A stretch of DNA of 63,676 nt, counting the filler, from Raillietiella orientalis (lineage: Eukaryota): NCBI GenBank assembly GCA_036172245.1. It is 2 parts of 2 records of this genome, joined end to end, with 100 filler letters (N's around TTAATTAATTAA, not from the genome) between each part and the next. Parts side by side here need not be neighbours in the genome. Positions count along the whole stretch, not along the records: positions 32,031 to 63,676 come from JAYWIR010000201.1; 1 more part is not named here. The stretch is one strand, 5' to 3'. The notes under the pieces are model-generated. The model made no database searches, was not told the origin of the DNA, and was given only the letters and a program-made list of their open reading frames with translations. A program made the translations under genes and the position numbers. Within the stretch, counting starts at the first letter, position 1. Each line of letters starts with the position of its first letter. Shown in pieces: positions 35,715 to 62,880 of this stretch.

Positions 35715-36765
35715 TATGGAACATAAGCCCCGGCGTGACCGGGTAAGAAATCTACCGGGTGTGATCTAAGGAGATCACGTGGATCTCGTACAACAGTACC
35801 AGGTCGAAATATGCCAGGGAGGCGTTCCCGTCTCGTCTCTTGCTCTCGTCGCTCAGCCCGTTTACGTTCCAACAGGAGATTAGCAGACCACGGTGAGAGG
35901 CGATTCCCGGCATTATGGCTGGAAAAGTGGCGTTGCTTCACTTCCATTGTGGCAGGTGATGTGAAAGTTGATGGATTGGACGGCCTCCTTAGGCACTCTA
36001 GGCACCAGGAGGACGGCCTCTGCCCCCTCGATCTCCTCCGTTTTGCGTTTCTCATGTGGCAGGTCCCGGAAATTTCCTACGCTTATTCCGCCCTCAATTC
36101 TGGAAGCCAGATTTTCCTCTTCTACGGATGGAGCGTTCTTTCGGGGATTCGTGGAATTCCGTTTAATTTTCCGGGGGGATGCCGTGGCGATGGATGCTTG
36201 GAGTGCGAGATCTCAGAACTCTTTTCACACGCGTGCCACCACAAGGTCTTTTGAGTCACGTTGGAAGGTCGCTACAACAATGGAGCGAGCTCCTCGGTCG
36301 CTCGCTCCTGAGCAGCGACATGGAGTTCACGTTTGATGATGAACGCCGCATCGCTGCCCTCCTTGTTTACTTTGTTATCGGTGGTTTGAGCGCTGGCAGC
36401 AGCGAGTTCTTGTGTGTCGCACTCGTCGATGCCTGTAATCTCCTCAGCTACCGCGCGGCAACTTCTAGTTATTTTACATCGCGGCGCGTATTCGCTCCGT
36501 TTCGAAACGTTTGCTAGTGTTTTATATTTTTTCGAGTTTACCACAGATCAACCTGGCTTTTGGCTGTTGCCCAAATCCTGTTCGGCGTTCTCTGCCGGCG
36601 TCCCGGAGATTGACTCCGGCTTGGTGGCGGAGGTTGCCTCATTAGCTGAAGCTAGAGCTGCTAACTTTTTCCTTTTTCTTGCCGCGTGCTTTGTCGCGTT
36701 TCGAGTGGACACGACAGAGACTGAATTTTGGGGCACATCCGTCGAGTGCGTGAGATTGGTTCTAT
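35715..36765 (-). mobile_element. Degenerate L1/Tx1 fragment: ORF1 C-terminal half plus start of the APE endonuclease
   Basis: The minus strand from ATG 35913 reads MPGIASHRGLLISCWNVNGLSDESKRRDGNASLAYFDLVLLYEIH (APE N-terminus). Upstream, PQNSVSVVSTRNATKHAARKRKKLAA...ATEELAPLL aligns with ORF1 of the 47337/54155 element. Confidence 0.85.
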
Positions 36766-38713: not shown

Positions 38714-39270
38714 TTCTCGATATTATAGCGTTGCGCATTGCTTGCAATCACAATTGAACAACGCAAGGACTACAGCTGATTTGTCCCGTTCCGTGTCCTT
38801 GCGCTCCCAATTGTCCTACGATGTTATCCCTAGATGCACTTTAAAGTCAGAAGTCTTCTGAAGTTTTGCTCTTCACATCTAAGGCATCCTCAGCATCGGA
38901 TTGCTCTTCTAGGAGACTCCTGCTCATGATGTCATACCTAAGGAGTCTTAAGCTTTGCACCAGCAAGCGCGTTTTTCGCATAAGCTAGAGAGTTTAACAG
39001 AAAACGTCGTTTTGTCATCTGCAAGAATCCTAGCACACTTCTATTCGTACTGATACAAGGTAGGAACAAACATCAGCTCAGCCCGCATCTTACAGTGCTG
39101 CTAACTTCGAGTAGTGGCACGCTCGTATTGCATCCGACAGCGGTTCGAGAAAGGAATAAACGTCTCAATCCTCAAAGAAAGAACGAACTGTTAAATGTCG
39201 CGAATAGCGGTTGGCAGCCCTGAAAGACGAATACTCTGACTGCTCAAGAATGCTAAGCGTGCAATGCTTC
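38714..39270 (-). repeat. Left arm of a roughly 550-bp imperfect inverted pair (partner 40515-41070)
   Basis: GCATAAGCTAGAGAGTTTAACAGAAAACGTCGTTTTGTCATCTGCAAGAATCC (about 38978-39030) is the near-exact reverse complement of GGATTCTTACAGATGACAAAAGGACGTTTTCTGTTAAACTCTCTAGCTTATGC (about 40754-40806). Similarity continues on both sides, roughly 75-85% by eye. Confidence 0.92.
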
Positions 39271-40199: not shown

Positions 40200-41450
40200 T
40201 TCTAGAGCTTGCTGTGAAACATCTCCATTCGACAGGAGCAGATCAAGCGCTGCGCACATCGTGGAGGCGGATGGCTTCTTCGTCAGTATTTACGACGCAG
40301 GCTTGATGATTTTTCTCGACGACAACCAACCTCTCGAGTTTTCTTTCTTCCTCAAACACTTAGGCAAAATCTTATTGCAGCCCTGTCTGTGTTTAGCGGA
40401 ACATCTTCAGCCGGAGAAAATGTAGTTCTTCTGAATGATGTAAGGTGTGGAAGCAGCTCACGGTCGCATAGCGAGCGAGGAGACAAACGCTGCAACTCCA
40501 CATTCTCGGGCGACGAGCATTGCCATCTCAGGATGGTTGAGCAGTCAGGGTCTCCTACTTTCAGGGCTGCCAGCCGCGATTCACAACACCTGGCAGTTCG
40601 CTTCTTGTTAAAAATTTGAGACTCCTATTCGCTCCTCGAACTGATGTCGGATGCAACACAAGCGTGCCACTACTCGGTGGTAGCAGCACCGTAAGATGCG
40701 TGCTGAGCTGATGTTTGTTCCTACCTTGCGTCAGCACGAAAAGAAGTTTGCAAGGATTCTTACAGATGACAAAAGGACGTTTTCTGTTAAACTCTCTAGC
40801 TTATGCGGAAAATGCGCTTGCGGGAGCAAAGCTTGAGACTTCTCAGGTGAGACATCATAAGCAGGAGTCTTCTAGCAAAGCAGTCCGATGCTCAGGATGC
40901 CCTAGAGGTGGAAAGCAAAACTTTAGAAGGCTTCTGAGATTGAGGTGCGTCCCGGGATAACATCGTAGGTCAACTGGGAGAGCAAGGACACGGAAACGGA
41001 CATGTAAACTGGAATCTTCCCCTTGTTTAACTGTGACCGCAAGCAATGCGCTGCACTGTAATATGGAGAACCGCCTGAAGAAAATGGCGCACGGAATTCA
41101 GAAAGCCAGAAGCTCACCGCAAAAAGCATCGTATGCGAAGAAAATGGTACAGCGAAATGGTCGAAGGAGGAAAGTACACGGGGTGCAATGTCAACAGCAG
41201 TTATCGTCACGAACACGATGCCTAGGGAAGAAACCGGATTTTGGCAAATGAGAACACCAATGATACCACTGATGCTGTGTTTCGGAAACTTTCCCAAAAA
41301 AAAGAATGCAGCAGCCACTGGATAGGAGACTGCCAACATTTCTTCCTTGCGTGCGCGCATTCCGCAGAATTTTGGAAACACTTTGCTGCAAAGTTCGCTC
41401 ACACGCATTGGCGATAATGATCGAAAGACAGACCAACTACCTAACTCCTA
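40200..41450 (+). mobile_element. Possible very old, AT-richer LINE ORF2 remnant that contains the right inverted arm
   Basis: Decayed motifs occur in the expected order across frameshifts: VSIYDAGLMIFL (cf. SAYADDL), QLHILG (cf. KYLG), SVKLSSLC (cf. RLKDLC) and ECSSH..ET.QHFFLACAHSAEFWK (cf. CCHC finger). Each motif alone is weak. Confidence 0.45.
40515..41070 (+). repeat. Right arm of the imperfect inverted pair (partner 38714-39270)
   Basis: Collinear reverse-complement match to the left arm, from AGCATTGC (about 40516) to ATATGGAGAA (41070). Confidence 0.92.
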
Positions 41451-45284: not shown

Positions 45285-47223
45285 TCGTGGGATCCGGCAG
45301 GGAGACAGCCTGAGCCCCTTGCTCTTCAGTACCTTCAATGAGTTGGTACTGAGAGCGTACAGGGAAACTCTGGCGAACCTGCCGCACGACTGTGTTGATA
45401 CATTGGTCGTTTCAGAGTACGCAAACGAGCTTCTTCTGCTGCTCCTTATGTCCACCTCTGCTTCGACGGTCGAGGAGTTCTTCAACCTGCTGCATCAGGG
45501 AAACGGACTTAATGTCGACAGGACGAAGTCGTCCGTGATCTCAGTTGGTGCGACGTGGGCAGGGTAGCAGGACTTAGTTCGTTTAAGGATACCCACGGTG
45601 AGGTACTACAAGTACCATGATTTGCCGTTCGAGGACTACTCCCACTGCAGAAGCGTCGTCCGGCTGCCTCCAAAAAGTAGAGACGGCGATCGGCCCCTTC
45701 CGAAGCAGCAGGTTTTTCCTGCCTGAACGGGCCACGGTTTGGAATACGTTCCCGGCTCCTCTCCTTCGTTCCCTGCTTTTTGTTTGCCCCCCCACAGATA
45801 GGATCAAAAAGCGGACAAAGGACCTTCTCCGTATCGCCCTTTGGGGCAACGGGAGGGCCCGAGTCCGCTTAAAGGACTTGTGCGCTCCGCGTCGGGACGG
45901 TGGTCTCTGCCTCCTGACATTATAGCAGCTAAAGCTGCATCTCCAATTCCGGATTTTGGCACTTGTGCTGGAGTTGTGGTGCACTTGTTGGTGCGTCCCT
46001 GCACGTCTCCTTCTCCAGCAAGCCACCGGCAAGACGGGACTGACGCCGTTTCTTGCACTCCGTCGCCGCGTCAAGCGATGCGGACTCCAGCTACGGAGGG
46101 TGCCTGCGCTGGCACGGAAACATCAAGGATCGGTCACCTGTCGCCCTGGGAACGGTAGTGCCTGGTTGCAGGAAACCGTTCGCTCGTGGGGACAGTTCGG
46201 CATGCAACGATCATAACAGGAACGAAGATTCCTGTTTGTGGGTTTACAGAAGTTGCACGCTCTGCGAGATCCTGAAGGATCCAAAGAAGATAGCGTGGGC
46301 GGAAAAACCACTCTCACAGCTGCGCTGCCCTCCCTGATGGAAGATCTGGACAGCTGTGTTGCGGCGTAGTGGGAGGTTACAGTTACAATCTCCAAAAAGG
46401 AGAAGAAGATAGGAGAGTGGAAGACGGGTGAGCTGACTGACGCTGCCACTCCGAGTGCGCCTCCCCATGGACTTGTACGCTAAGGCGCGCTGCTCGACGT
46501 TCCCATTGGAAGTTTGAAGTGGCTTCCGGTACTAATGAACACCTCCACCCATCCCATGAAATGGCAGGAGTCGACTCTCCTGTTGCAGCATTGGGAACTC
46601 CCCTGCAACGCCCGCCGACAACACTGCACCTGGGGAGCGGTGGACCTCAATTGCGTCAGGTGTAGGAAAGGGGAGTCCCTCCCCTGCGTGCTTGTGGATT
46701 GTGTTGCCCTTCGGCTGCTTTGGTTACGCTTTGCCGCGGCCATAGGAATTCCCAGCGGCAACCCAGGTGACGTTCTTAAAGCCCTCTTCGTTGCCGACGC
46801 CATTCGGCCAGCGGACCCGTTACCAGCTCCGTGCTGCCGTCGCGGGTTCGTCGCCGCCAGGAGCAAGGCTACGGGAGGACCACACGACTAGGGTGCCATC
46901 CAGCCTGCTTCTCAGTTCCTGAGAAGAGCGTCGCGATGGCCCCACCGTAAACCAAGCAGGCAGCAAGAGCTTGCCGGAATCCTGCAGAGGATGCGACGGC
47001 CCCACCAGCTACAGCGATCCCTTCCCGTAACCTCCCACTCTTTCTTTTCTTTTTGTTTTGTTTTTTTGTTTTCTTTCCACCTTCCCCCAGCTGCCGTGGT
47101 CGTCCGTACTTGTCTGCGAACCGCTGACACGTCAGGATCTGTGTATCTTCTTGCTTGGCTGGAGCAATGGACCAGGCACTGCAAGTCACTCTTAAAGTAT
47201 ATTGTTTCAATAAACGCCATTGC
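45285..47223 (+). mobile_element. 5'-truncated L1/Tx1 copy (element A): RT from GIRQGD, CCHC finger, 3' UTR with AATAAA
   Basis: The nucleotide sequence is collinear with 56576-58500 (same subfamily). It contains CVRCRKGESLPCVLVDC, a T-rich UTR at 47040-47077 and AATAAA at 47209-47214, with many stops. Confidence 0.95.
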
Positions 47224-47243
47224 GAAAATGAAACGCTTTATGC
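47224..47243 (+). repeat. Probable target-site duplication of element C/D (partner 58518-58537)
   Basis: GAAAATGAAACGCTTTATGC vs GAAAATCAAATGCTTTGTGC, 17/20 identical, directly flanking the 5' and 3' ends of the element. Confidence 0.75.
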
Positions 47244-48440
47244 GCTCTAGGGCGGACGTGTTTTCTCGGTGCTCCTCGTGCCAGAAAGTCTCCCCTAGTG
47301 CTAGCATCGTGTGTTTCGATGGTCGATCAGGCAGCGATGCCTGACGCAACAGCCAGGGATGGCCACGGGTCAGCAACAACGGCGCCCCCAGAGGCGATGG
47401 AGAGCCAAGGGGCGGCGGCAACGTCGCTTCCAGAGGCGATGGAGGTGGAAGTATCCGCCCCCACAGAATCAGTCCCCGCTGCAGCGCTGGCGTGGAGCGC
47501 CGTTGTGTCGGCGCCATCGCCTGCAGCCGCGGCGGAATTGTCGGCCTATGTAGAGGAGGAGTAGAAAACATCATTGTTCTACAAGGTAGGCAATCTATAT
47601 TCTTTAGAGAGCGCGCGCGCCTACTCGTAGGGCATGTGCGCTTTCGATTTCAAAGAGCAGGAGCTCAGCGCTATGACTATCCGCAGCGGGGGTCAGTACG
47701 TGGAGGTCATGTGCAAGCAACCAGAGCTTGCCCGACGACTGCGTAAAACCCAGGTGATGATATGGACGCGCAGGCTCCTCCCTATTACGGCGGACCGCAG
47801 CATGGTGGTCCACCTGTTAGGTGTTACCGCCCGGATGCGCAATGAACAGGTTCGCGCCGCGCTGGAGGAATACGGAACGGTCCACGTGCAGTGGACGAAA
47901 GTTAGTCCTTTCGAGTACTACACGGGGCTGCAACACGGTCTCAGTGCTGCGCGCGTGACCGTTCGGGAGGGCTGCACTCTTCCCCACAAACTGGTGGTCG
48001 ATGGCGAAACCGTCGACCTCTGGTATGTGGGGAAGCCGAAATACTGCGGCTTCTGCAATACGTCGAGCCACCTCAAAAAGAGGTGTCGCAGTGTGCAGTG
48101 CCAAGTATGCGGAACCAAGGGACACACGAGGGAGGTGCGCCCTAAAGCAGCGGTGCAAGTGGTTTTCAAGAGAAACCTTAAAAAACGCGCCCGGCTTCTG
48201 CAGAAAAGGCTGGCGGCGAAAGCTGCTGCGAAGGCTGTGCCACCCGCGCCCAAGACCCAGGCCGCACCCGAGACCCCGGCGACCAACGCCGAAAAAGTTG
48301 AGAGAGCCGGCCAGGAGACTGGGTGGCAAGTGGCAGCGGCCAGAAAATCAAAGCAGGAGAGCAGGATGGAGAAAAAGCTCGCGTACCGACACAAAAAACG
48401 ACAGACAAGCGAGCAAATTAAAGAATGCCGCGTTGTCGTT
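47244..48440 (+). mobile_element. 5' part of a full-length L1/Tx1 (element C/D): 5' UTR and ORF1 N-terminal half, interrupted at about 48440
   Basis: The 5' motif GGACGTGTTTT is at 47254. ORF1 starts at ATG 47337 (MPDATARD...) and has premature stops, an RRM-like segment and the knuckles CGFCNTSSHLKKRC and CQVCGTKGHTREV. The frame resumes after 54155. Confidence 0.9.
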
Positions 48441-48644
48441 AATTACCTGGTTGTGCCGCGACGTTTATTATAATATCAACAGGGAACTGTGTTCCCAGGC
48501 TAGGGGAACAGAAAATAAGGAGTAGATTTCCTGGAACGCAGTCCAGGCACACTGAGAGTTCGGAACGGGAGGGGGTGGGACAACAAATAAATAAATTGGT
48601 TGGGAGGGCGGGGACAGGGGTATACAGTCTAACCGTTCCAATTC

Positions 48645-51600
48645 TCAGAACCGGCGGTGAATGCCGCCGATCTCCATCCTGACTTCTGCTCCAAGATTTG
48701 GCCACCCGGCAGCCATTTCCAGGTTGCAGGCTAAAGTGTCGGGGACCGATGTTGGGACTCCTCGCATCTGCAATACGTGGCGGGCCCTGGCAATGGCGCG
48801 GACGCAGCAGATGATTGCGACTTCCACTCCAAGAGAAAGCTGCCACGCGTGTGGAAACGGCGCATCCAATCCAGTGCGGTGTGTCCAGGGTGTAGGAGCG
48901 CTGAAGAAAGCCGCTGCCACAGATCCTGGAGAGCACCGCACTCAAACAGCAAATGCGGAAGCGATTCCACTGCTCCGCATTTGACACAGTTTGGGGACGC
49001 AATCCCCCCGGAAATCAGGTGCGTTTGCTGGTTGCAGTACTAACCTCAATGCACCAGCAGAAAAGCGTCCTGCTTCCACCGAATGGGAAAGAGAGTCGCC
49101 TCCAAACACGCAGAAGGGACAACAAGTTCATCGGTGGGCACCGCGAGGAGCTCACTCCACCGGAGAAGCCCCTTTGCAAGAATGCGAGGTGTGGCAGCGT
49201 CTGCCACTTCGCAAGTCCGCCAGCCCCCCGGCAGTCGGGTTTCGCCTTCGATTTCGCAAGTGATCTCCCACCTCGCTGGCAGGTCACTGTCATCTCGCAC
49301 CATCAGTGCACACAGTGCTTCGGCAAGTGACGTAGCGGCTAGGCGTGTCCACTGGTCCTTGTTTTCAGCACCTCCCCCACTGGATAGTATGGGGAAAGTT
49401 TCACGCAACGGAGTTCCAAACGGGGCACATCCTGTTGCGCTGCCCAGGACGATAAGGCTTCCTGCCTCCAGGCGTTGAAGTTCGTAGGCCGGCAGGAGAT
49501 CCACTCATGCTTTCCCAGAAGCGTGGCGAGCTGCTTCAAAGGGAAGCCGAATCCTCTCTGGGCGCGCTCCGTACGCAGATGCAACGAACGTAGTCCGTGC
49601 ATGCGGCTCTGCACTAGGAGTCCGATCCGCTCCAGCGTCAGGATGCCCAATCCTGCATCCCGCCGAGGAGCCGCCGAGTCCTTCAGGCGTATCCTGCATC
49701 TCGCCGGTCCCCACAGGGCGTTACGCAACAGGTGTTGCGCCCGGCGCTTACCCGAGTAGGGAGGGGGACAAAGCAGAAAGACGGGACGGAGAAGGGGGGC
49801 AAAGAAAATGTTCCACACGAAGGCCCGTTCTGACAGGAGAAACCTGCCGCCATGGAACGGGCCCAGAGCAGTCTCTGCCTTGTGAAGGCAGTCCGACCAC
49901 GCTTCTGCTGGACAGAAGGCGCCCAAGTGAACGCCGAGGTACTTCAAGCTTCTGCCCGTGGGGATTTCCAGGCGGATCCAGTCGGACTGCCCCTCCCACG
50001 TAGAGCCAACCGGTACAACGGTTAATTTCGTCCTGTTGACGCTCAGGCCCGCTCCCCGACGAATGAGATCGAAGAAGTCCTAGAGCCTGGACGCCGGGGT
50101 GGACATGGGCAGCAGCAGGAGAAGGTCGTCAGCATAGGCGGCCACGGCCGTTGTTCCTGGGAAGGAGCTCGGCAGGTTGGCCAGCGTCAGCCTGTAAGCC
50201 CTCAGCACCAACTCAAAGAAGATGCTGAAGAGCAGGGGGCTTAAGCTGTCTCCCTGCCTGATACCCCGCCGTATAGGAATAGCGTACACGTGGCGCCCTC
50301 TGAAAGAGATACAGCAAAACGCGTGGCGCCAGCAGGAGCTCAAGTAGGCAATGAAGTGCGTCGAGAGACCTAGGCAACCCAGAAGCTCCAAAAGGAGGTC
50401 CTGGTTTACGCTGTCGAACGCTTTGCAGAGATCGACGGCAACCGCTAAGGCTGTTCGCGTTCCCTCGTGCCTTGAACACCGCCGCTCACCTTTGACAGCG
50501 GCGATTTCGGCTGCCTGGCTCTGCTGCGCCACGCGCTGCTGCAACTCGAACCATGTTCGCGCGAAGAAGAGATTCGCGTCCATGGACCGCCCCGGGACCG
50601 CATACGTCTGCTCCGGACTTACCAAGGACTCTGCGATTCTCCCCAGGCGCGCGACCCATAGCCTGGAGAACAACTTGACTTCCGAATTTACCAGTGTGAT
50701 CGGACGCCAGTTGCTGAGGTGACGCAAATCACCGCCTTTTGTCAGGAGCCCACCTTTGCTGAGCGGAAAGAAGCGGGAACATCTCCCGTCTCACGCTTCA
50801 GCGAGGAAAGGCTTAGCACCAGGGGGACGAGCTCCTCCGCAAAGCACAGAAAGGACTCCGCGGGCACGGCATCCTCCCCAGGCGCCCTACGCCTCTTCAG
50901 GCCCGCTATGGCGTAAGATACTTCTTCCGCCGTGAAAGGCCAATCCAATCTGGCGCGTTCCTCCTCGCCGATAGCAGGGTTGCCCGTCGGAAGAAGCAGC
51001 TCGGAAAGACTGCGTTCCGTGGGCTCCTCCGCGTACAACGAGGAGTACTAGCGCTTGACTACGCGGTGTACTTCGTCTGCACCCGAGCAATCCTGGCCAG
51101 CGTCATCGAGCAGGCAAGCCGCTCCAGACTGCCAAACCTGGCGCTCGGCCCTGGAGTTGTACTCCGGCAGACGCCGGACTTTCGGTATCGGGAGAAGGTA
51201 CGCGCCTGCAGATAGGATCTGCTGTTCGCGACACCGTCCCCGAAGCCGCGGGGAAGCAGGTGCAAGGGGAACCGGCAGCAGAACTCGCGGACCGATCTTT
51301 TCAGATCGTCTCAGTCCTCGAGTTCACAGATGGCGAAGCCCCCTAGGTGTTGGCGGAGATGCTCCGCCGCCTCCGAATTGCTAAGCCAGTTGGCCGGCAA
51401 CCTCCAGACATTCATCGGAGGCCCTTTACCAGGCGAGAGAAGCTCGAACTCCAGTCTCGGATGATCCGAAATCGCGGACAGCAGGCGCCCTCTCCGACCT
51501 ACTCTTGAGAGCAGGTGTTCATCGAGGAACGAATGGTTAGGCGATCTCTCCATCCCGGGCTCACCAGCAAGCAAGTTTTGCACGCGCACGGACGCGCATA

Positions 51601-52126
51601 CCTCGCTCACGAGTTGCTTCTCCCTTGAGCGGCATCTCTGCTCTGTTAGCAGGTGGACGTTGAAGTCTCCTGCAAAGAGGTGCGCCACGTTAGGGCCGGA
51701 GTCAGCGAGCCAGCGGCTGCGCAGGCCACCCAGGAATGCAAGTCGCTGGGCGTAATGCCGGCTGCCGCTCGGCGCGTAGATGTTCGTAAAGACCAGGTCC
51801 ATCGATTCGGACCACTTGAGGACAAGTTGGCCCAGAGGAATTTCCTCGTCGAAACAAACGTTCCGCACCGCCTTCGCCACCCTGCCTCGAACGAGGAACG
51901 CGACCTCGCACGTGTGCGCGGAGCCTTGCCGCCAGTGTAGCGTCCCGCCCGCTCTCTCTTCCAGATCCGATGCCTGCCGCACGGAGATGCTATGTATCTC
52001 CTGCAGCAGCACCAGATCGAACGCGCGCAAAGCGTTGGCTACCGTCCGCCTTTTGTCACCATCACGTAGCCCGTTGACATTCCAACTGGCCAAGCTGACG
52101 CGACGAGCGGACGCGAGTCCACGCAT
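48645..52126 (-). pseudogene. ORF2 of element B: APE endonuclease, reverse transcriptase, C-terminal CCHC finger; stops and frameshifts
   Basis: APE motifs SWNVNGL, LLQEIH, NIYAPS, AGDFN and SDH. RT motifs RAPGEDA, NWRPITLVNSEVK, DLCKAFDSV, GIRQGDSLSPLLF, AYADDL and KYLGV. Finger remnant ESLPHLLFEC. Confidence 0.93.
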
Positions 52127-54069
52127 CACTGCTGCGGACATGACGGCGTGCTCCTCTCCGCGTCCGGCGAGAACTCAGCTGGTAGGAGAGCGGATTGGGA
52201 AGCGGAATCGCTCCCGTTCGCTGCCACATCGCGCCCAACTGAGTCCTGGGAGCCGAGGATCATCGCCTCGGTCTACGTGCAGGAGCCGGAAGCGCCTCCG
52301 TCAACAGGCTCATGCTTTCGCACTTCATCCCCGCGCGCTACCGGCTTACCCCGGGATGCGCGCTCCTTTTGTTTGCACTCGGACTCCACCTCGGAGTCCG
52401 AGTGCCTGGCGCGAGACTGGCGTTTTGCCAGTCTCTTTTTGTTTCGGCAGGTGGAGGCTTGCCCTGCTTGCGCGGGGGTCGTCGCAGTCGCCAACGCAGC
52501 TTCCGGAGCTTTGGCTTCCGCAGCCGCTCTCTGGCGCGAAGCGACGGAGACAGAGCACGCAGCCGTAGTGCGTACCTGGGTACGCACCTTCTTCGGCGTG
52601 CTTCTCTTTTGCCTCCCACGTACCTTAAGGATGGGGAATATTAAAGGGTCAACCTTCTTCTTCCCCTTTGTGGGCGTCCTGGAGACTCGAGTCCAGCCCG
52701 CGTCGGGGACGCCCTCCTGGGAGGCCGACGCCTCCCTCAATTGTTTGGCCGGAGATGCCGGCTCACATTTCGCGCTCGCGGCGGGAGACGGCTCCGTCTC
52801 CGTTACGCACTGCACCTGCTCCTTAGCCGATGCGGGCGAAACGGCGGTCATTGCCGTCGTCCCGCGAGGCGCTATTGCAGCCTTCGCTGTTCGTGCCTTC
52901 GGCGTGGATGACGTGATTTCCACCGCCGTAGGAGGAGACTGCCGTTCAGAGGCAGCTCCGAGGGTACCCACGCACGGTTTCCCGTGTGCTCCGCTGGACG
53001 CGCAAGCGGACGCGGACGGTTCAGCAGCCTTGATTGCGTGCGTGCCCGCACTCTTAGGCTGCTTCGAAGGGAGCGATTTGCCCCCAGGGCGACGTGGCAT
53101 CTTTCCCGTCTGCGCGGTTGTCTGGGATGGTGGCTTTCCGGAAGCGACCGCGCCCTTTTTCCCGGGACCCCCACTCAAAGATGCCCCGCTTTTCGCGCCC
53201 GATTTCTCCCGTGGCACAACGGGGGATCTTTTTGGCGCGGACGGGGTAGATTGTTGTCGGCTTTTCGCCTACCGCTTTCTTTTGAGCTGGGCGCACTCTT
53301 TGATAAAGTGGCCGAGCTGTTTACAATAGCGGCAGTTGCGTGAAGGGCACGTCCACGGACGGTGGCCCTCTGCACCGCAAATGCCGCAAGCCGGTCGCTG
53401 ACCGGCAAATTTAAGGTGGACGATCGCATCGCCCACCTGCAAGTGCGGAGGCATTTGCCTCCTATCCGCCATGGTGACACGCGTCATGGCTAGTCCGCTG
53501 TGGAGAGATGCAATCCTTTTGATCGGAGCGTCTAATCTCCACATCGCGTGAACCGTGGCGAATGCAATTAGTGCAGCGACGAGCACGCGATCGGACGTGT
53601 CCACCTGGACGGCGGATAATCGGACCACGAACGACTGGTCCATGTCCGACGGGACGACCTCCTTCCCGCGGATATTTTGCGGGGTGCGCAGAAGGCGCTG
53701 GACTAGGGATGCATATTTGCAGTGCACCTCCCAGTGTCCGAGCGCGTTAACCGGCATGACGGCCAGGAGGTCGTCCTGTCGGACCCCGACGCGCAAAAGC
53801 TCGTCCCACAAATTTTCTCCGACCCCGTCGGAGATAGGAGCACTCACCGGATAGCAGAGCGCAGGCTTGTAGCCATGGGCTGCATATGCCTGCAGCTCTG
53901 CTTCGTCGGGCGGTGCTCCGATGGCTGCCGCCGCCTTGACAACGGCGGCGAAGCTTCTCGCCGGTTGCGAGACACAAGAATCAGAGGCGGACCGGACATC
54001 TGGAGTAGAGTCTCCACTGCCAGTAGGAGCCTCCACATCCATCTTTTGCTGCAGAGGCTTCGTGTACAT
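52126..54069 (-). pseudogene. ORF1 of element B (gag-like, two CX2CX4HX4C knuckles, long basic low-complexity tail); 648 codons with two premature stops
   Basis: Knuckles CGICGAEGHRPWTC and CRYCKQLGHFIKEC. Track ORFs 53269-54102 and 52273-53217 are in one frame, which ends at TGA 52128-52126. Confidence 0.88.
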
Positions 54070-54154
54070 CCCAGTGGACGCGCTCGGGCACACCACACAC
54101 AAGAAGACGGAAAGGAATCACGCTCGTGGAGCAACAAAAAACACGTCCGTGCGG

Positions 54155-57100
54155 GCGTTATCGTCGAGCGTATTTGCGACTGCTGCGAAAAAGAACTCGC
54201 CGCTACCGACGACAACCCCTCTGTTGACTCTGTCAACAGCGAGAGGAGCGAGCCTGCGGCGGCGTCCGTCGTAGACCGCACCATTGATGACGTAGCCTTC
54301 GCGCTAGCCGCGGAGGAACTGGCACGCTCGTTGCATCCAGAACCCTCCAAGGCTGGCAAGAAGGCCGCAAGGCGTCCGGCCTCCCCTCAGGAGACCCCAC
54401 TTCCGACTTCGAGGTGGAGGCCGGAAGCGCAGCCTCCGTGTTCACGGCGCCGCACAAGAAGGCTGGACGTTAGTCCACAAAGCCAAGGAAGCTCGTCTCC
54501 CCCGTCGAAGTGGAAGAGATGTCTTCCGCAAGCGAGGGTGCCATGAGCGTGGGAAACTCTCGGGACCCGTCGCCCGAGAGACTCCTACGCGCGGACACGG
54601 AGGGGATCAAGGGGGTGGAGGCCGAACAGGTGCCTCAGGTGCCTGAGAAGGCCGAAACCCCCATGGACATCCCGCCTACCTCGCAAGAGGAGGGCTCCCC
54701 CACACCTTAATCTTCCTAGCAGTAATGCCGGGAATCTTCTTCCGCCGTCGTCTGCGCGTTCCGTTTTGAGCGTGAAAGGCATGACAGACGCCGGCAGGAG
54801 ACGAGACATGGCCGCCCTTCTGGAGTCCTACGACCTTGCGCTGCTGGAGGAGATCCACGTGATCTCTGCAGAACAAGCGCAAGAGATCGAACGGATCTCC
54901 GGAGGGCGGCTGTGGTACAGGTGTAGGAGACCGAGAAGTTGCGGTGTCGCCTATCTGCTTCGGCCAGCCGTCGAGGCGACGGCTGGGGGCGTGCGGTTCG
55001 ACGATAACGGTCGTGTCGGCCAGCTGACTCTCAGGTGGTCCGACTCGATCGATTTGCTCGTGACGAACGTGCACGTACCGAGCGGCGCGGACCTGATGAC
55101 CAGGAGGGCGAGGAAAAAGTTTTTTCTTGCCCTCCGGCGACACTGGCTGAACAAAGCAGGCGTGCGGAATGCCAATCTGGTTGCAGACGATTTCAACGTT
55201 CGCCTGAAACCAGATGGGTAGAATCCCGAGCGTGACCTGGTCAACCATGTGTGCATTGCGGTGCACACCTCTAATCTGTTGGCCAGTGCACCGGGGATGG
55301 AATGAAGCATTGACCGCGTGTTTCTTGACGAGCACCTGTGCCCTCTTGTGGGCAAGCGCGGCAATTTACCATGCGAGCTGTCCGACCATCGCCCGCTAGT
55401 CCTCGAGATCCATCCGCGCGAAAAGGGCCCCCCGTCGTCAGCGTGGCATCTCCCAGGGGACTAGCTGAAGTTCTAGGACGCGGCGGAACCTCTCCGCACG
55501 TTCATACGGAGCTTCAGGCTGCGGACACTCTAGGATTGGGACTGCTGGAAGCGGTAGGTCCAGGAGTTCTGGGACCAGTTCCCTCTACACCGCCTACCTA
55601 CGGGTTTTCGGACCAGGGTTCGTAACGAACGAGCCCACCTGCAGTCCCGTCGTTACGCCAGGACCCCCGACACGAGCAGGCTGTCGGAATACAAAGCGGC
55701 AGCCGAGAGGCAAGCCTGGCAGTCCGGATCGGCCAGCTTCCTGGACGATCAGGGCCAGGAGCACTCGGCACCCGCGAAAATCTGCGGCCTCCTGCGGAAT
55801 TACTACTCCTCCTTGTATGCCAGGATACCTCCTGAAAGGAGCGTCTCACGAATCCTGTTTCCGAATGGCGCTCCAGTGATCGGTAAAAAGCCGAGAAAGA
55901 CCCTCGACGAGCCTTTCACGATGGACGAAATCCTCTCGGCCATCGGAAAGCTCAAGAGGCGCAAGGCTTCAGGGGAGGACGACATGCCCGCGGAGTTTTA
56001 CCAAACTTTCGCGGTTGAGCTTATTCCCCTGGTACAGCAACTCAGCTTGCTGATACGCGAAACAGGAGACGTTTCCGCCTCGTTTCGTTCGGCAAAGTTG
56101 TGGCTATTTCCTAAGGAAGGAGATCTAAAAAGCATGAACAACTGGCGTCTCATCACAATAGTGAATGCGGACGCTTAGTTGCTAGCTAAGGTTTGGGCAA
56201 AGAGGTTGGGACAGGTTGCCAACATCTTTAGCAGCCCGGATCAGACATATTCTGTTCCCGGGCGAAGCATGGAGGCGAACTTGTTCCACTCTTCCACCTG
56301 GCTAGAGCTCCAACATGAAAGGAGCTTTGTACGCAGCCGGAAATCCAGTGCTTGCGCCGGCAAGGGGTTGAATGGTCGGGTGAGAGAGGGAGCCCTTGCG
56401 GTCGCTGTCGACTTGCGAAAAGCATTCGATTGCGTCGACTAGAATCTCCTTCTGAGGCTTCTCGAACGCTTGGGCTCCCCGGCCTCATTAGTGGCCCATG
56501 TGCGCTCCAGCTGGCGCGAAGCGCTCATCAATGCTATTTTCAGCGGGCAGACCGTGCACGGCGTGCCTGTGCTGCGTGGAATCCGGCAGGGAGACAGCCT
56601 GAGCCCCTTGCTCTTCAGTACCTACTTTGAGTTGGTACTGAGAGCGTACAGGGGAACTCTGTCGCACCTGCCGCACGACTGTGCCGGTACGCCGTCCGTT
56701 TCAGCGTACGCGGACGACATTCTGCTGCTGCTCCCTATGTCCATTCCGGCTTCGGCGGTCGAGGAGTTCTTCGACCTGCTGCATCGGGGAAACAGACTCA
56801 CGGTGAACACGGCGGATTCGTCCGTGATGCTACTCGTAGCGGCGTGGGCAGGGCAGTAGGACTGGGTCCGTTTGAAGATCCTCACGGCGAGGTACTCCAA
56901 GTACCTTGGTGTACCGTTGGGGGACTACTCTTCTGCGGAAGCGTGATCCTGCTGCTTCCAAAAAGTAGAGAAGGCGATCGGCCCGTTCCCACGCGGTAGG
57001 TTTTTCCTTCCTGAACGGGCCGCTGTTTGGAACACGTTCGCAACACCTCTCCTTCGTTTTCTGCTTTTTGTTTGCCCCCCCACAAAGAGGATTAAGAAGC

Positions 57101-58517
57101 GGACAAAGGACCTCCTCCGTATCGCTTTTTGGGGCAACGGGAGGGCCCCTGTCCCCCTAAAGGACATGTGCGCTTCCCGTCGGGACCGTGGTCTGGGCCT
57201 CCTAACGCTGGAGCGGCTGAAGCTTCAGCTCCAGTTCCGAATGTCGGCACGTGTTCCGGAGTTGTGGTGCACCTGTTGGTGCGTCCCTGTACGTCTCCTT
57301 CTCCAGCAAGTTTCCGGCAAAACAAGACTGACGTCGTTTCTTGCACTCCGTCGCCGCGTCAACCGATGCGGACCTCAGATACGGAGGGTGGCTGCGCTAT
57401 CACGGAAAAACCCAGGATTGGTCACGTGTCGCCTTTTGAACAGTAGTGCCTGGTTGTAGGAAACCGTTCGAACGTGGGGACAGTTCGGCATGCAACGCTC
57501 TCAACAGGAACGAAGGTTCCTGTTTGGGGGTTACAGAAGTTGCACGCTCCGCGGGATCCTGGAGGATCCAAAGAAGAGAGCGTGGGCAGGAAGAAACCCC
57601 CTCGCTGCTGCGCTGCTCTCCCTGATGGAAGATCGGACAGCAATGTTGCGGCGAAGTGGGTGGTTACAGTAAGAATCTCCGGAAAGGAGAAGAAGATAGG
57701 AGAGTGGAACACGGGCCAGTTAACAGACGCTGCGACCCCGAGTACGCCTCCCAATGGACTTCTGCGCTAGGGCGCTCAGCTCGATGTTCCCATTGAACAT
57801 CTGAAGTGGCCCCCGGTGCTCATGAACACTTCCGCCCTTTTCTTAAAATGGCAGGAGTCGGCTCTCCTGTTGCAGCACTGGGGACTCCCCTGCAATGCCC
57901 GCCGACACCACTGGACCTGGGGAGCGGTGGACCCCAATTGCGTCAGGTGTGGGGAACGGGAGTCCCTCCACCACCTACTAGGGGATTGTGTTGCCCTTCG
58001 GCCCCTTTGGTTTTGCTTTGCCGCGGCCATCGGAATCCCTTGCGGCAACCCAAGGGACGTTCTGAAAGCCCTCTTCGTTGCCGAGGCTTTTCGGCCTGCG
58101 GCCTCGTTAGCAGCCATGTGCTTCCTTCGCGCGATCGTCACCGCCTGGAGCAAGGCTACGGGAGGACAACATGACCAGGGTGCCATCCTGCTAGCCTTCC
58201 AATTTCTGAGGAGAGCGTCGCGATAGCCCCACCTGGATCCAAGCATACAGCAAGAGCTTGCCGGCATCCCGCAAAGAATGCAACGGCCTTACCAGCAGCT
58301 GTGATCCCTTCCCTTACCCTCCCAACTTTTCTTTTCTTTTTTGTTTTGTTTTTTGTTTTCCCCCCTTCCCCCTGCTGATGTGGTGGACCGTACCGGTCTG
58401 CGAACCGGTGACCCGGCAGGCTCTGTGTTTCTTCGTGAGTGGCTGTAGCAATGGTCCAGCCACTGCACGTCTTTGTAAATGTTTGTTTTATAATAAACGC
58501 CCCGGCGAAGCCCGGGT
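54155..58517 (+). mobile_element. 3' part of element C/D: ORF1 C-terminus, ORF2 (about 54725-58300), 3' UTR; disabled
   Basis: VIVERIC...AFALAAEELA (ORF1) is followed by TAATG at 54723-54727. ORF2 shows LLEEIH, DDFN, KASGEDD, NWRLITIVNADA, DLRKAFDCVD, GIRQGDSLSP, AYADDI and CVRCGERESLHHLLGDC. AATAAA is at 58492-58497. Confidence 0.94.
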
Positions 58518-58520
58518 GAA

Positions 58521-59362
58521 AATCAAATGCTTTGTGCAAATCGTCCGCGACGGCTAAGGCTCCAGCCGAGTCCGCCCTATCCTCTGCATGATCTTCTTGG
58601 TCAGAGGGGAGCGCGAGGCTCCCTTGACCTTCCTGAGCAACGCGTTTTTGCAACTGCCACCATGAGCTGGCGAGCAGCAGGTTGGCCTCCATGGTTCGTC
58701 CGGGAAAAGCGTAGGTCTGCTCGGGACTCACTACGGAAGCGGCCACCCCCCCCAAGCGCTAAGCCCACAACTTGGCATACAACTTTGCCTCCGCATTCAC
58801 TACTGTGATGAGACGCCAGTTGCCAATGTTGCGTAAGTCTCCTGATTTCGGCAGGAGACGTACTTTTGCTTACCGGAACGAGGCGGGAACTTCGCCGTGT
58901 ACGCGAATCAGCGTACTTAACCTGAGCACCAGGGGGGCCAGCTCTGGCGCGAAGTGTTTGTAAAACTCCGCGGGCAGGCCGTCCTCCCCTGGTGCCTTCC
59001 TGTTCTTCAGCCTGTTGATGGCGGAGACGACCTCCACCATCGTGAACGGTTCGGCCAACCTGAAACGATCCTCCTCCTTGAGCGCGGGGAGGCCATCCTG
59101 CAGCAGGCGCTGCGCGAAATAGCGCTCCGGTGTTAGTTGCGCGTACAAGGAGGAATAGAACTCCCGCACGATGCGGCTTACCTGAGCTGAGCTAGAGCGT
59201 TCTTTGCCCTGATTGTCCAGCAAGAAGGCCGGGCCTGACTGCCAGGCCTGCATCTCCGCCAAAGCCTTGAATTCTGCCAGGCGACGAACGTCGGGACGCC
59301 TAAAATAACGGCGAGCCTGAAGGTATGCCGCTTGTTCCTGAATCCCCCGCCGAATCCCTTGG
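58521..59362 (-). mobile_element. Internal L1/Tx1 ORF2 fragment (element F: linker and RT N-terminal subdomains), cut on both sides by other insertions
   Basis: Reads AWQSGPAFLLD, EFYSSLY, KAPGEDGLPAEFYK, NWRLITVVNAEAK, QTYAFPGRTMEAN and ALAVADDLHKAFD, then stops abruptly at the 3' end of element C/D. Confidence 0.93.
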
Positions 59363-62300
59363 CGAGTGTACGTGTTTTAACTTTGCTTTTCAGTGAGTCG
59401 AGAGAAAGAGGTTTTTCCTTGTGTTGTTTGGTGTGGAAGATCGTTGGTGTCCGAAGACAGCGATGCCTGAGGACACCACGATGAAGATAGGTGTGAGGGA
59501 GGCTTGCTCACCCCCACAGCCTACAGAATCAGGGGCGTCCGCCTTGGAATTGCCCTCGCCGCCCAAGGCGAGGAGCTGGAGCGCCATGGTGGCCGCGCCG
59601 AGCGCGGAAACGATGGCCGAGATGGCGGCCTACCGGACAGCTGGGTACAAGCCCAGCTTAGTGTTCCAGATAGACCCCTTATTTGATGGAAAAACGGCAC
59701 GCGCGTTTTCGAAAGCGCTGCAAAACGCCGGAGTTAAAGAACAAGATCTTGACGGTTTGTACGTTCTCAGCGGAGGTCAGCGAGTCGGAGTGGTGTGCAA
59801 GGAGATCACCTTGGCTGAATGTCTGATCACCAACCCGTTGAACGTCGACGGCCGCTAGATCTTGCCGGTGACGATGGACCGCTCCGAGGTGGTCGATCTC
59901 ACTGGAATCAGGAGCCGTATGACTCGCTCTGCGGTAGCACAAGAACTTCAAAAGTTCGGCGAGGTGCACGCGCTGTGGCCTAAGCCAACAATCTTCGAAG
60001 GCTTCAATAGCCATTTCGGAGGCCAGGCTGCAGCGCGGGTAACCGTGAATAAGGATTGTGGGCTTCCCCACAAGCTGGAGATCGCGCAAGAGAGCGTGGA
60101 CCTCTGGTACGTGGGGAAGACCCGGTATGGCAACTACTGCGATACCGTAGGACACCTCCGCAAGAGGTGTCCTAACATCCAAGGCCACATGTGCGGGGAG
60201 AAGGGCCACGTTCGAAGTGTGTGCCCAAAACGAACCACCCGGTTCCTCCTGCTGCGAAAAAGGCGCAGGGAAAACGCGCAGTGAAGGTCACAAGACCTAA
60301 GGCAGACGCTGGCCGGCAGAAGCTGCCAGATCCTCAACCTCCAAAAGAGAAGACGAAGGATAAACCATCTCAAGTGGCGGAAGGTGAAGAGGGCTGGTTA
60401 CTTGTAGCAGCCAGAAATGAGAAAAAAGCTCCTTTGAAGGAGGAGAAAGAGAAGTCAGCCGGTAAGGCAAAAAAACCCGGGCCGCGTTCGAAAACGTTAC
60501 GCGAGTGCACGGTCGCACTGGAACGTATCGTCGTTCCTGAAGATGCAACCAGGGGCGAAGAGCCTCCCCTCGCCGTTTCCATCGCGCTTGAAGTTCAAGA
60601 CGGCGAACCCTCTGTTCGCACAGAGGGTGAGCCGCGCGACGCGCCGGTCGACACCGAGGACGCCGCGTTTGCAACGGCGGCGGAGGAGCTCGCGGCCACG
60701 CTGGCCGAGCGTCAGAACCCCTCACGCAAGTCCGTGCGAAGGCCGGCTCCCGCGAAAAAGGCCGCCACAGGTGAGTTGGACCTGGCGGCCGGAAGCACAT
60801 CCTCGTCCTCGGAGGCACCCCCCAGGAAGTCGGGACGCAAGTCCCAGAAGCCCAGGAGGCGCCTCCCCTCCACCAGCGAGGAGGAGAAGAAGGAAGCCGT
60901 CGCCAGCATGGGAAATTCGGAGGAGGAATTCCCACGCTCGGAAGCCGTCGATGCGGCCACCCCCATGGAGGAGGGTGAACAGGGAAGTGAAGTCCCCCCT
61001 GCAGGCGCCAACCCTGAACAGCCCGCCCCCATGGAGGAGGGCGAACAGGTAGGCGCGTCTCCACCTGCGGGTGATCCGGCCGACGCACCGGCACCGATGG
61101 AGGAGGGGGACCAGGTGCCTTCAGCACCTGACCCTCCTCCTACACCTAGCGTCCCGCCCCAGCAGGTGGCGGACGCCGCACTGCCATCTTCCCAGGAGTA
61201 ACACCTGGGCTCGCCAGTCGCCGTCGGATTAGCGCCGACTGTTGGAACGTCCAGTGGCTGCGCGACGACGGTTACAGGCGAGATACGGCCGACACCCTGC
61301 GTGAGCTCGTCCTGGCCCTGCTACAGGAGATTCACGTGATCACCGCGGCAGACGCCCTGGAGATCGAGACGATCACGGGGGGTCGGTTGTATTGGTGATG
61401 CGGACTCCACAACACCTGCGGGGTCGCGTTCTTCGTGAAGCCGGCCATCGACGCTGCCGTGAAGCGCGTGCGCTTCTGTGACGACGGTCGGGTCGGTCAG
61501 CTGATTCTCAGCTGGTCCGACTCGATCGAACTGATCGTCACGAATGTGTATGCCCCGAACGGTAAACAGGGATGCAGCGACCGCACCAGGTTGCTGGAAT
61601 CCCTGAAGCGCGACTGGCTGACGAACACGAACGTGCGGAAGGCTCACCTGATAGCGGGAGATTTCAATCTCCGTCAGCTAACAGGTGAGCCAGAAACACA
61701 AGAGAATGCGATGAACGAGTTGTGCGTCGATATGCCTGCGCGCAACTTGTTCGCGGGTGAGAGGGGAATGGTCCGCAGCATGGACCACGTCTTCCTCGAC
61801 GCTGACCTGTGTTCACCGGTCGGCAAACGGGGAAGGGTTGCGTCAACGTTGTCGGACCATTCCCGGTTAATTTTTGAGATGCGGCCCCGCGACAAAGGAC
61901 CGCCATGCAGGGACTGGCGTCTACCCGGGGGACTGGACGCGACTCTCAGTTGCGAAGGAACACCTTCGCGAATTCCTGAGAGGCGTCACGCTCCAGTATC
62001 ATACGAATTGGGACCTTTTTAAGGCCCCGTTTCGGGAGTTCTGCGAGCAGTTCTTCCTGGACCACCTAATTTTCGGAATCAGCAATGGTCCTTGCAACCA
62101 TCAGGCCTATTTACAGGCTTTTGGGTACGAGAGAATTACTAATGTCCGCAACTTGGCCGAGTACGGCGCCGGAGCCGAACGCCAAGCCTGGCAATCCGGG
62201 GCGGCCAGCTTGCTGGACCACCAGGGCCTGGAATGTTCGTCCCCGGTGTCGGTACGGCATCTCAAACGGAGTTTTTATTGCTCCCTTTACGCCAGGGAGC

Positions 62301-62880
62301 CCCCGGATCGAGACGCCTCTGGGTGTTTGTTTTCGGATGGCGCCCCGGCAATAGGGGAGGTGGAGATGCAAAGCCTCGGCGAGCCTTTTACCACCGGCGA
62401 AATTCTCGTTGGTATCAGAAGGCTCAAGAGGCGTAAAGCTCCAGGGGAAAATGGCTTGCCCGCGGAGTTCCTTCAGAGCTTCGCGGCAGAGCTGGCACCC
62501 CTGCTGGTTAAGTTGATCAGGCTGATCCAAGACGAAGGCGATGTTCCCGCCTCGTTTCGGTCAGCCAGAGTGAGGCTCCTTCCGAAAGGGGGAGACCAAA
62601 GGGATTTAAAGAACTGGAGTCCGATCACTATCGTGAATACGGACGCCAACTTGATAGCAGGGCTGTTCCCGGGCGAAGTATGAACGCCAACGTCGTCGTC
62701 GCAAGCACATGGGTGCACCTGCAGAGAAGAGAGAAGGAAGGGATAGGGAAAGTCGGCAACCCCACATTGGGGCCGCCAGCCATGATGGGAAGGAAACCCC
62801 GGGCGGGGAAGGGGGCCCTAGCGCTTGCAGTCGATCTTTACAAGTCGTTCGACTGTGTAGACCAGGAACTACTCTTGTGC
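59363..62880 (+). mobile_element. L1/Tx1 element E: 5' UTR, ORF1 (59463-61201), ORF2 from 61201 (APE and RT N-terminus); 3' part missing or interrupted
   Basis: The 5' motif GTACGTGTTTT is at 59368. ORF1 (MPEDTT...) has decayed knuckles NYCDTVGHLRKRC and HMCGEKGHVRSVC. ORF2 shows CWNVQ, LLQEIH, NVYAPN, AGDFN, SDH, KAPGENGLPAEF and DLYKSFDCVDQ, after which homology ends. Confidence 0.93.
60961..61120 (+). repeat. Three imperfect 66-bp coding repeats (PMEEG[E/D]Q) in the ORF1 tail of element E
   Basis: ATGGAGGAGGG at 60965, 61031 and 61097. Confidence 0.85.

Follow-up and report, generated by a model that had tools for sequence, protein, structure and literature searches.

An L1/Tx1-type LINE lineage of Raillietiella orientalis with an endonuclease that appears to lack the recognition hairpin, and with insertion sites particular to each subfamily

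In the genome of Raillietiella orientalis (assembly GCA_036172245.1), a lineage of L1/Tx1-type long interspersed nuclear elements (LINEs) carries an apurinic/apyrimidinic endonuclease-type (APE) domain which appears to lack the betaB6-betaB5 hairpin that contacts the target in characterised LINE endonucleases, and yet its subfamilies insert at many precise sites. The lineage is represented by three diverged elements, B, C and D, in a stretch of 63,676 nucleotides (hereafter the window), for which an earlier note had proposed a lost hairpin, an ancestral design and an unusual mode of targeting. The window consists of two contigs joined by N's, the first (C199) holding a satellite and the second (C201; positions 32,031 to 63,676, JAYWIR010000201.1) the LINE nest with copy B. 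To judge from sequence, it is somewhat probable that a hairpin-less but active APE endonuclease reads short, subfamily-specific motifs with other surfaces. Target-specific LINEs which nest in repeats are already a known kind of element; the results suggest that an endonuclease without this feature of the characterised enzymes is new. New here are the counts within the genome and outside it, the branch H, the selection test and a two-sided motif at dispersed sites. A natural, selected lineage without the hairpin yet with many precise targets would be a counter-example to the view that the hairpin is needed for activity and target reading. Moreover, a panel of enzymes which are 50-80% identical and have different inferred motifs makes it testable how APE-type LINEs gain and switch specificity.

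The shortened endonuclease segment

On translation, the three window copies read as previously given, namely NLLAGEPGMERSPNHSFLD in B, NLLASAPGME*SIDRVFLD in C and NLFAGERGMVRSMDHVFLD in D, and each segment does lie between a GDFN-type motif and SDH within an Exo_endo_phos domain (Table 1). Around each copy a zinc-knuckle open reading frame (ORF) 1 stands upstream, the endonuclease at the start of ORF2 and the reverse transcriptase (RT) downstream. The identical length claimed for the three copies holds for the segment itself, which has 12 residues throughout, but not for the whole interval from D145 to D205 (L1 numbering), which is 43 in B and 41 in C and D. Copy C has DDFN instead of GDFN, IDR, and a stop codon in the segment, while in copy B the catalytic D205 position is occupied by Asn. 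Asp stands there in 24 of the 28 B-type copies printed and in 64 of the 69 distinct copies of the genome, the Asn of B being a change specific to that copy.

The short interval is a property of the whole lineage. Across all fetched loci of this genome and the window, intact ORF2s included, the D145-to-D205 interval is 43 (n=37), 41 (n=29) or 39 (n=3, family H), such that all 69 distinct endonuclease C-halves are short. By comparison, the interval in outside relatives runs from 45 to 82 with a median of 63, and none of the 187 measurable proteins falls below 45, L1-EN and R1Bm both being at 60 (D126-D186 in R1Bm; PMC1919474). The outside set comprised 270 proteins from database searches, a fragment (P0125) being left aside, from which 83 were dropped for want of a GDxN motif (39) or of D205/SDH (44). 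The hairpin anchor motif is found in 177 of the 187 outside relatives, including the shortest (45-49), and in most of the ten without it a different residue precedes Thr-Trp or Thr-Phe; the hairpin is kept by every Tx1-like relative measured. In this genome the motif occurs in 3 of 69 copies, and in those three at a different position. Similarly, the D(R/K) motif of the D154-R155 loop of L1 is present in 138/187 outside relatives and in 0/59 own copies. Hence the short loop is not common among described L1/Tx1 relatives, the absence of the (F/Y)T(F/W)-type motif is confirmed, and the statement that L1-EN has about twice as many residues here is correct, there being 12 residues from the conserved strand to D205 against 25 in L1-EN.

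The predicted structures agree with the loss of the hairpin and indicate that the loss is larger than had been supposed. AlphaFold models of copy B (pLDDT 85, 19 sequences) and of an intact C copy (pLDDT 94, 67 sequences) both place after a helix a strand at 176-178, a 12-residue coil at 179-190 without any beta-ladder, and a strand from D191; the block 179-190 has pLDDT 83 and 93, respectively, and in the model of B contains one helical turn. L1-EN is the best fold match of all, with Z 23.6, rmsd 3.0 and 213 aligned residues for B and Z 25.1, rmsd 2.2 and 210 for C, ahead of TRAS1 (Z 19.9) and R1Bm (Z 19.5), and the sequence profile also matches L1-EN (E 1.7e-16). The modelled domain is thus of the four-layer alpha/beta endonuclease/exonuclease/phosphatase (EEP) fold of APE-type LINE endonucleases, while the models suggest that the betaB6-betaB5 hairpin with its Thr anchor, otherwise a feature of these enzymes, is missing. 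With N178 in register with D179 of L1, the 12 residues replace the 25 of I180-I204, that is, the connector helix, the T192 anchor and the hairpin. In addition, the loop after GDFN, corresponding to the D154-R155 loop, is shorter by 4-6 residues, and equivalents of both T192 and R155 are absent. In family H the coil has only eight residues. The net charge of the coil is -3 to +1 and that of the segment before SDH +2 to +5 (ten main-branch sequences), the strand before SDH bearing a conserved basic RVGRRG(R/K) stretch.

The L1 hairpin (193-202) is described as entering the minor groove and, together with R155 and S202, holding the nicked strand 3' of the cut (PMC8565326); the variants T192V and R155A leave 5% and 12%, respectively, according to Table 1 of PMC1950540. 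The hairpin is reported to be probably common to LINE endonucleases, and to be needed for recognition in TRAS1 and R1Bm (PMC1919474, PMC2868851).

The short loop is a matter of design, since the catalytic residues are kept and the protein is under purifying selection. Open ORF2 frames of 1173-1215 residues occur in the genome. N14, H45, Y115, D145, N147 and H230 are invariant in 19 of 19 sequences (alignment A2), E43, D205 and D229 are kept in 18 of 19, and PF03372 is present in all 19. Among nine subfamily representatives, all 36 pairs have a dN/dS of 0.18-0.38. These values, together with the intact ORF2s, rule out that the loop is short because the window copies have decayed. Families A, C, E, G and H form one RT clade with SH-aLRT 99 in two quick RT trees, of 92 and 57 rows, the first of which omitted 16 of 108 rows without the motif at which sequences were trimmed, several of these being restored in the second. 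Because the families form one clade, a single ancestral loss of the hairpin is the simplest reading, and the proposal of an ancestral design is sustained. In a tree containing no named Tx1 family, the clade lies amid rows some of which are zebrafish pol-like proteins, and is separated from frog and lizard L1-like, plant and fungal rows (SH-aLRT 95); the best-named RT matches are zebrafish 'pol-like' and 'TX1' proteins at ~30%. The elements share with the L1 group an ORF1, an ORF2 with N-terminal APE domain, RT and C-terminal Cys-His region, 5' truncation, and target-site duplications (TSDs). The long poly(A) tail of that group is not found; instead, AATAAA and a conserved block are followed by a tail of five bases, the last two of which are AA. 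From the TSD-flanked insertions and the purifying selection, the endonuclease would be active and nick duplex DNA.

Searches of the genome itself, with at least 150 and at least 148 scored matches, gave no LINE endonuclease with a normal loop among the best candidates scored; a Pfam search added family H, whose endonuclease is only 25-30% identical to those of the other families. Close relatives elsewhere are scarce. A database search with the endonuclease region gave one distant match (P0004), a protein with the hairpin that is placed in another part of the tree, and a profile search with the C-half found no outside relative. The only close one found is P0125, a public fragment of 106 residues which clearly belongs to this lineage (E 4.6e-42) and stops before the loop. 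In metagenomes 24 loci were found, 24-32% identical, and those readable in frame carry a normal segment, while the ESM Atlas gave generic EEP clusters only and a viral fold library distant EEP proteins only. No natural hairpin-less LINE endonuclease is described in the open literature searched, subscription papers and Repbase lying outside its scope.

Fixed insertion sites and target motifs

The unusual targeting proposed for these elements is borne out, each subfamily having its own fixed site in sister LINEs, and family H in U1 small nuclear RNA (snRNA). For four subfamilies, B, E, C and A, flanks were classed by hand at the first 30 exact 3'-end matches of 135, 121, 174 and 115 pattern matches. 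B lies at its main site, antisense in ORF1 of C-type hosts, in 16 of 30 cases, with 2 in tandem and 12 elsewhere. The main site of E is in sense orientation in the GDFN codons of D-type hosts (21 of 30, with 7 in tandem and 2 elsewhere); that of C is antisense in the RT DLHKAFD codons (19 of 30; 2 tandem, 9 elsewhere), and that of A antisense in the endonuclease GGRL codons (15 of 30; 2 tandem, 13 elsewhere). All four therefore exceed the threshold for target preference of >20% of flanks in one repeat given in PMC4494074. Clustered at 85%, the host flanks at the main site form 7 clusters for B, 1 for E, 10 for C and 4 for A. C sits at the same codon across host clusters down to 43% flank identity. 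Three pairs of C loci are duplicates; the truncation points of copies differ, and dispersed copies have clean TSDs and the same motif. Some fifteen further end types with other fixed sites were seen among 223 distinct ends in all loci, a sample biased to LINE clusters.

For family H, U1 snRNA from nucleotide 23 follows six of eight exact 3'-end matches, and a whole U1 precedes the element in the three loci read (L105, 2311-2473 and 7841-8003; L106; L108). In these loci family H has an intact ORF2 of 1177 residues with a hairpin-less endonuclease, and beyond its 3' end come U1 from nucleotide 23 and then a further copy. Three more junctions of family H with U1 are present on contig C220.

Other observations on the distribution of copies may be set beside these. 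An unnamed subfamily lies antisense in B-type ORF2 at codon ~353 in 8 of 8 distinct ends (L003, L007, L008, L011, L013, L014, L024, L030, L045). The E copies in the GDFN codons of D-type elements form head-to-tail arrays of copies 96-99% identical, the youngest seen (L035 1600-1720 and 7500-7660; L037, L039, L036). A sister end type of A, the AGTTTTT variant, is found across large contigs outside clusters (G000 C1, C2, C3, C4, C7, C10 and others) and is perhaps a dispersing or non-autonomous form. Copies cluster on contigs, and some of the 491 contigs of the assembly hold several clusters, to be compared with the one nested cluster per chromosome, at the centromere, of the Zepp type.

For the target motif of C, 18 dispersed insertions with both junctions were used, 8 from among the first 30 matches and 10 from a set of 20 loci hand-picked away from clusters; the other 10 hand-picked loci and L144, with LINE-type flanks, were left out. 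Their TSDs are of 9-17 bases (median 14) and start with T (16 of 18), C (18), G (18), A (16) and R (18) at +1 to +5. Upstream of the TSD, G stands at -4 in 15/18 (p 1.6e-6) and at -7 in 12/18 (p 7e-4), and S (G/C) at -1 in 17/18 (p 1.9e-3). The motif at dispersed sites is in other words GnnGnnS/TCGAR, on both sides of the putative nick. Codon periodicity as the source of G at -4 and -7 was considered and ruled out, there being no excess of G at the corresponding positions downstream (3/18 at +6, 7 at +9, 1 at +12). The 13 other sites of A start with RCAG, with A at +3 in 13/13 and G at +4 in 12/13. At the 12 other sites of B, A stands at +4 in 12/12 and C at +5 in 11/12, positions +1 and +2 being fixed by the search pattern, so that only +4 and +5 count as evidence. 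On the element's strand the TSD-start motifs are ACnAC for B, RCAG for A and ATTTCAAT for E.

At the 3' end, main-branch elements all finish with AATAAA, ~25 bases before the end, the conserved block and the five-base tail. The junction of C does not vary: 30 of 30 ends carry an identical five-base tail, and none has a poly(A) of variable length. A common 3' stem-loop is not supported, as five ends fold differently (z +0.4 to -2.8). At two insertions of A the junction is odd: at L176 (C12) extra As occur where the site matches poorly, and at L182 (C21) tail and target overlap by three bases; both junctions hint at pairing between tail and target.

How the target may be chosen

The preferred reading is of a common ancestor, in one Tx1-like (L1-group) lineage, which would have lost the hairpin, the Thr anchor, the connector helix and part of the D154-R155 loop, and with them most of the surface that grips the DNA 3' of the nick in L1-EN, while remaining a selected APE nuclease whose TSD-flanked insertions suggest activity. 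The bottom strand would be nicked at a short subfamily motif, for C 5'-YTCGA/SnnCnnC-3' on the nicked strand, at the left edge of the TSD, such that the TSD-start motif would be the primer end. Reverse transcription would then start from the nicked 3' end, always at one point of the RNA, and the TSD would arise from a second nick ~14 bases away. This geometry is taken from the standard model of target-primed reverse transcription, where the first nick is on the bottom strand (PMC2881922). Conserved coding motifs in sister LINEs would offer the best sites, as U1 snRNA would for the deep branch H, and nested clusters would result. The reading is presumed to be done by those surfaces of the endonuclease that are left, and perhaps by further domains of ORF2, candidates being the basic RVGRRG(R/K) strand before SDH and the lengthened loop and helix after NxYAP. 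By the same model, the bases at -1, -4 and -7 would lie 3' of the nick on the nicked strand, the side which the hairpin reads in L1. Since these bases are outside both the primer and any read-through RNA, in C it is a protein that must read them, and do so without a hairpin. Target choice is reported to follow the endonuclease (PMC1919474, PMC4494074). The loss of the loop may itself be the cause of the targeting mode.

Several points weigh against this reading, some of which also bear on whether the coil is a hairpin remnant. Replacement of the L1 loop by three glycines gives 0% retrotransposition and 10% nicking (Table 1 of PMC1950540), such that compensation would be needed here. The motif is strongest at the positions of the primer end, a pattern which pairing with RNA would likewise produce. 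The nine sites of A with both flanks have no clear consensus upstream of the TSD. A motif of 5-9 bases cannot alone explain why more than half of the copies are in one LINE site, so that a preference for certain chromatin, or the purging of copies inserted elsewhere, must play a part. The hosts of E form one cluster with a median identity of 94%, and co-duplication may thus account for E. Finally, alignment agrees on a shorter segment but not on the place of the gap: HMMER and two of four MAFFT modes put it before the coil, HMMER with one 16-residue gap that sets the coil against the hairpin tip of L1, and the coil is then left as a stub.

Such a stub is the basis of an unlikely alternative, according to which mainly the connector has been lost, the coil still touches the groove, and the enzyme is of standard Tx1-type specificity, resembling the compact endonucleases of other clades. 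The fit to PF14529 is in keeping with this, own domains needing 111-113 residues for 112-114 positions, as against 122-131 in seven L1/Tx1 relatives. CR1-group endonucleases, which belong to a different clade and are not known to insert at fixed targets, have a similar distance from GDFN to Asp, a very short loop and a Pro-Thr anchor seven residues before the catalytic Asp. Nevertheless, in the present lineage there is no Thr/aromatic anchor, neither model has a beta-ladder in 179-190, and the coil is neutral to acidic and shrinks further in branch H; R1Bm, with the shortest solved hairpin, still has a D-to-D interval of 60. No CR1-like Thr before the catalytic Asp was found at that place in the own alignments A2 and A3, the CR1 definition being a general one with no CR1 sequence compared, and motif scans of viral contigs and of the own genome for CR1-type controls gave chance matches only. 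As CR1 compactness enters here as general background, the claim to novelty is limited to 'L1/Tx1-type, anchor-less and target-specific'.

A different way of choosing the site, doubtful but the most serious of the alternatives, is that nicking is loose and that the site is picked when the 3' end of the nicked strand pairs with read-through target bases at the 3' end of the RNA, the site of the master copy serving as an inherited guide. Each subfamily's motif indeed equals the opening 4-8 bases of its main target and falls precisely on the primer end; the C junctions and tails are invariant, extra As appearing only at the poorly matching A site; and three C copies match the motif in the 3' TSD copy where the 5' copy does not, with none the other way round, although these are too few to weigh much. 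It would also explain the many targets of enzymes 50-80% identical, and co-transcription with the target is reported to strengthen specificity (PMC4494074). Against it, G at -4, G at -7 and S at -1 fall outside primer and RNA, the ~five matching bases at dispersed copies would make a weak duplex, and AATAAA so close to every end suggests cleavage near the end over long read-through. Slightly more doubtful again is the idea that the lineage has given up reading by a hairpin because the RNA has taken over the choice of target in whole or in part, a loosely cutting, hairpin-less endonuclease being combined with a few read-through bases as a short guide, so that every new landing site could give rise to a subfamily with its own target. 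Were it true, it would amount to an RNA-retargetable APE-type LINE and account for some fifteen fixed targets of closely related enzymes.

The remaining two accounts are improbable. One old nested insertion per subfamily might have been multiplied by segmental duplication, the loss of the loop being irrelevant to targeting, and the duplicate C pairs, the single host cluster of E and the repeat-rich clusters fit this; however, the diversity of hosts largely refutes it for B, C and A, and the varied truncation points and the clean TSDs and shared motif of dispersed copies also oppose it, leaving it very improbable. Hardly to be credited is that the shortened domain is inactive and that breaks made by another nuclease are used. 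The near-inactive loop-deletion variant of L1 (PMC1950540) and the absent equivalents of T192 and R155 would favour this, but the catalytic residues are kept under purifying selection, TSD length is tightly ~14 with subfamily-specific motifs, and no normal-loop enzyme was among the best candidates scored in the genome.

With regard to known systems, human LINE-1 ORF2p EN (PDB 1VYB, 7N8S, 8SP7) is the nearest in sequence and fold and has the same catalytic set (N14, E43, Y115, D145, N147, D205, H230) and TSDs of ~14 bases. In contrast to it, the D145-D205 interval of the enzymes here is shorter by 17-21 residues, the T192 anchor, the hairpin, the connector helix and the R155 loop motif are missing, and the elements have no T-tract/poly(A) priming signature. 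Among the L1 loop variants LR1, LTx and L3G (PMC1950540, PMC8565326), the domain resembles the engineered L3G deletion, which does not retrotranspose in L1. The Tx1 clade as described in PMC4494074 (Tx1L in Tx1D, Tx1-Mar in Mariner-N4_AMi, Keno in U2 snRNA, Kibi, Koshi) has similar ORF1 zinc knuckles, fixed sites in other repeats and an snRNA gene, and tandem copies. Unlike the present elements, Tx1L has an 11-residue hairpin loop (PMC1950540), and here each subfamily targets a single site, a coding motif in a sister LINE. R1Bm (2EI9) and TRAS1 (1WDU) share the APE fold and sequence-specific insertion but both have the hairpin, with a Thr175-Phe176 anchor in R1Bm (PMC1919474, PMC2868851). Plant RTE endonucleases offer the sole natural shortening of the same loop found in the literature searched, together with a distinct insertion signature, but they are only two residues shorter and of a different clade (PMC6007223). 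Zepp and ZeppL of green algae form similar nested clusters by insertion into LINE copies, GC-rich relative to the genome, although there one family targets itself (PMC8226300, PMC3446292). The lineage would in other words work like target-specific Tx1 elements and nest like Zepp, to either of which it may belong.

The window nest

Within the window the elements form a nest of four levels, in which a host ORF2 is cut by D at its GFG linker and by C at DLHKAF, and C is in turn cut by B (Table 1). The TSD-flanked insertion of B and C stated earlier is upheld by TSD copies at both ends. The TSD-like copies at the two ends of C have 3 mismatches in 15 bases, a number above expectation, and the 5' one may go back to an earlier donor site or to the tandem copy.

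Table 1. Features of the LINE nest, in window coordinates
Feature	Position	Strand	Remarks
Element B, full-length L1/Tx1-type LINE	48440..54154	-	ORF1 zinc knuckle, ORF2 endonuclease-RT with stops and frameshifts; inserted antisense into ORF1 of C
APE endonuclease domain of B	51431..52126	-	WNVNG 52084, QEIH 52003, NIYAP 51784, GDFN 51670, SDH 51469; domain search, fold match to L1-EN
Short segment of copy B	51521..51577	-	Read 51577 to 51521; predicted to replace connector helix and betaB6-betaB5 hairpin, then D205-position motif (Asn); translation, model, profile alignment
3' TSD copy of B	48430..48439	-	10 bp, one mismatch to 5' copy
5' TSD copy of B	54155..54164	-	10 bp
Element C	47244..58522	+	Split by B at 48430-54164; antisense at RT 'DLHKAF' codons of host LINE
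Endonuclease domain of C	54724..55420	+	Decayed, start approximate; GDFN-type motif 55186, SDH 55381
Short segment of copy C	55273..55329	+	Stop codon
5' TSD-like copy of C	47229..47243	+	12/15 bases as 3' copy; junction with upstream truncated C-type copy
3' TSD copy of C	58523..58537	+
5'-truncated C-type copy	45286..47228	+	Head-to-tail before element C
Host LINE ORF2 remnant	58538..59347	-	Codons ~293-573; cut by C at one end, by D at the other
Element D, 5' part	59363..62877	+	Broken off in RT; antisense at GFG linker codons of host
Endonuclease domain of D	61207..61890	+	GDFN-type motif 61657, SDH 61852
Short segment of copy D	61744..61800	+
5' TSD-like copy of D	59348-59362	+
Lineage-wide 3' end	58492..58522	+	AATAAA, conserved CCGG...CCGGGT block, five-base tail, no long poly(A); also 48440-48469 (-), 35720-35749 (+)

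At 35720-35913 a further LINE 3' end abuts an opposite-strand endonuclease fragment near QEIH, which is the fixed site of another subfamily. Between LINE blocks, a stretch of lower GC contains inverted copies at 38714-39268 and 40516-41070, of ~555 bases and 81% identical. Outside the nest, positions 1-31930, on C199, are a tandem satellite of ~277 bases per unit with copies ~93% identical. Full-length 5' ends share a GGACGTGT-like motif followed by a pyrimidine run, in the window at 47253 (+), 54152 (-) and ~59365 (+), and the same arrangement is found at L035 ~1670 and L055 ~1875; this motif is possibly an internal promoter.

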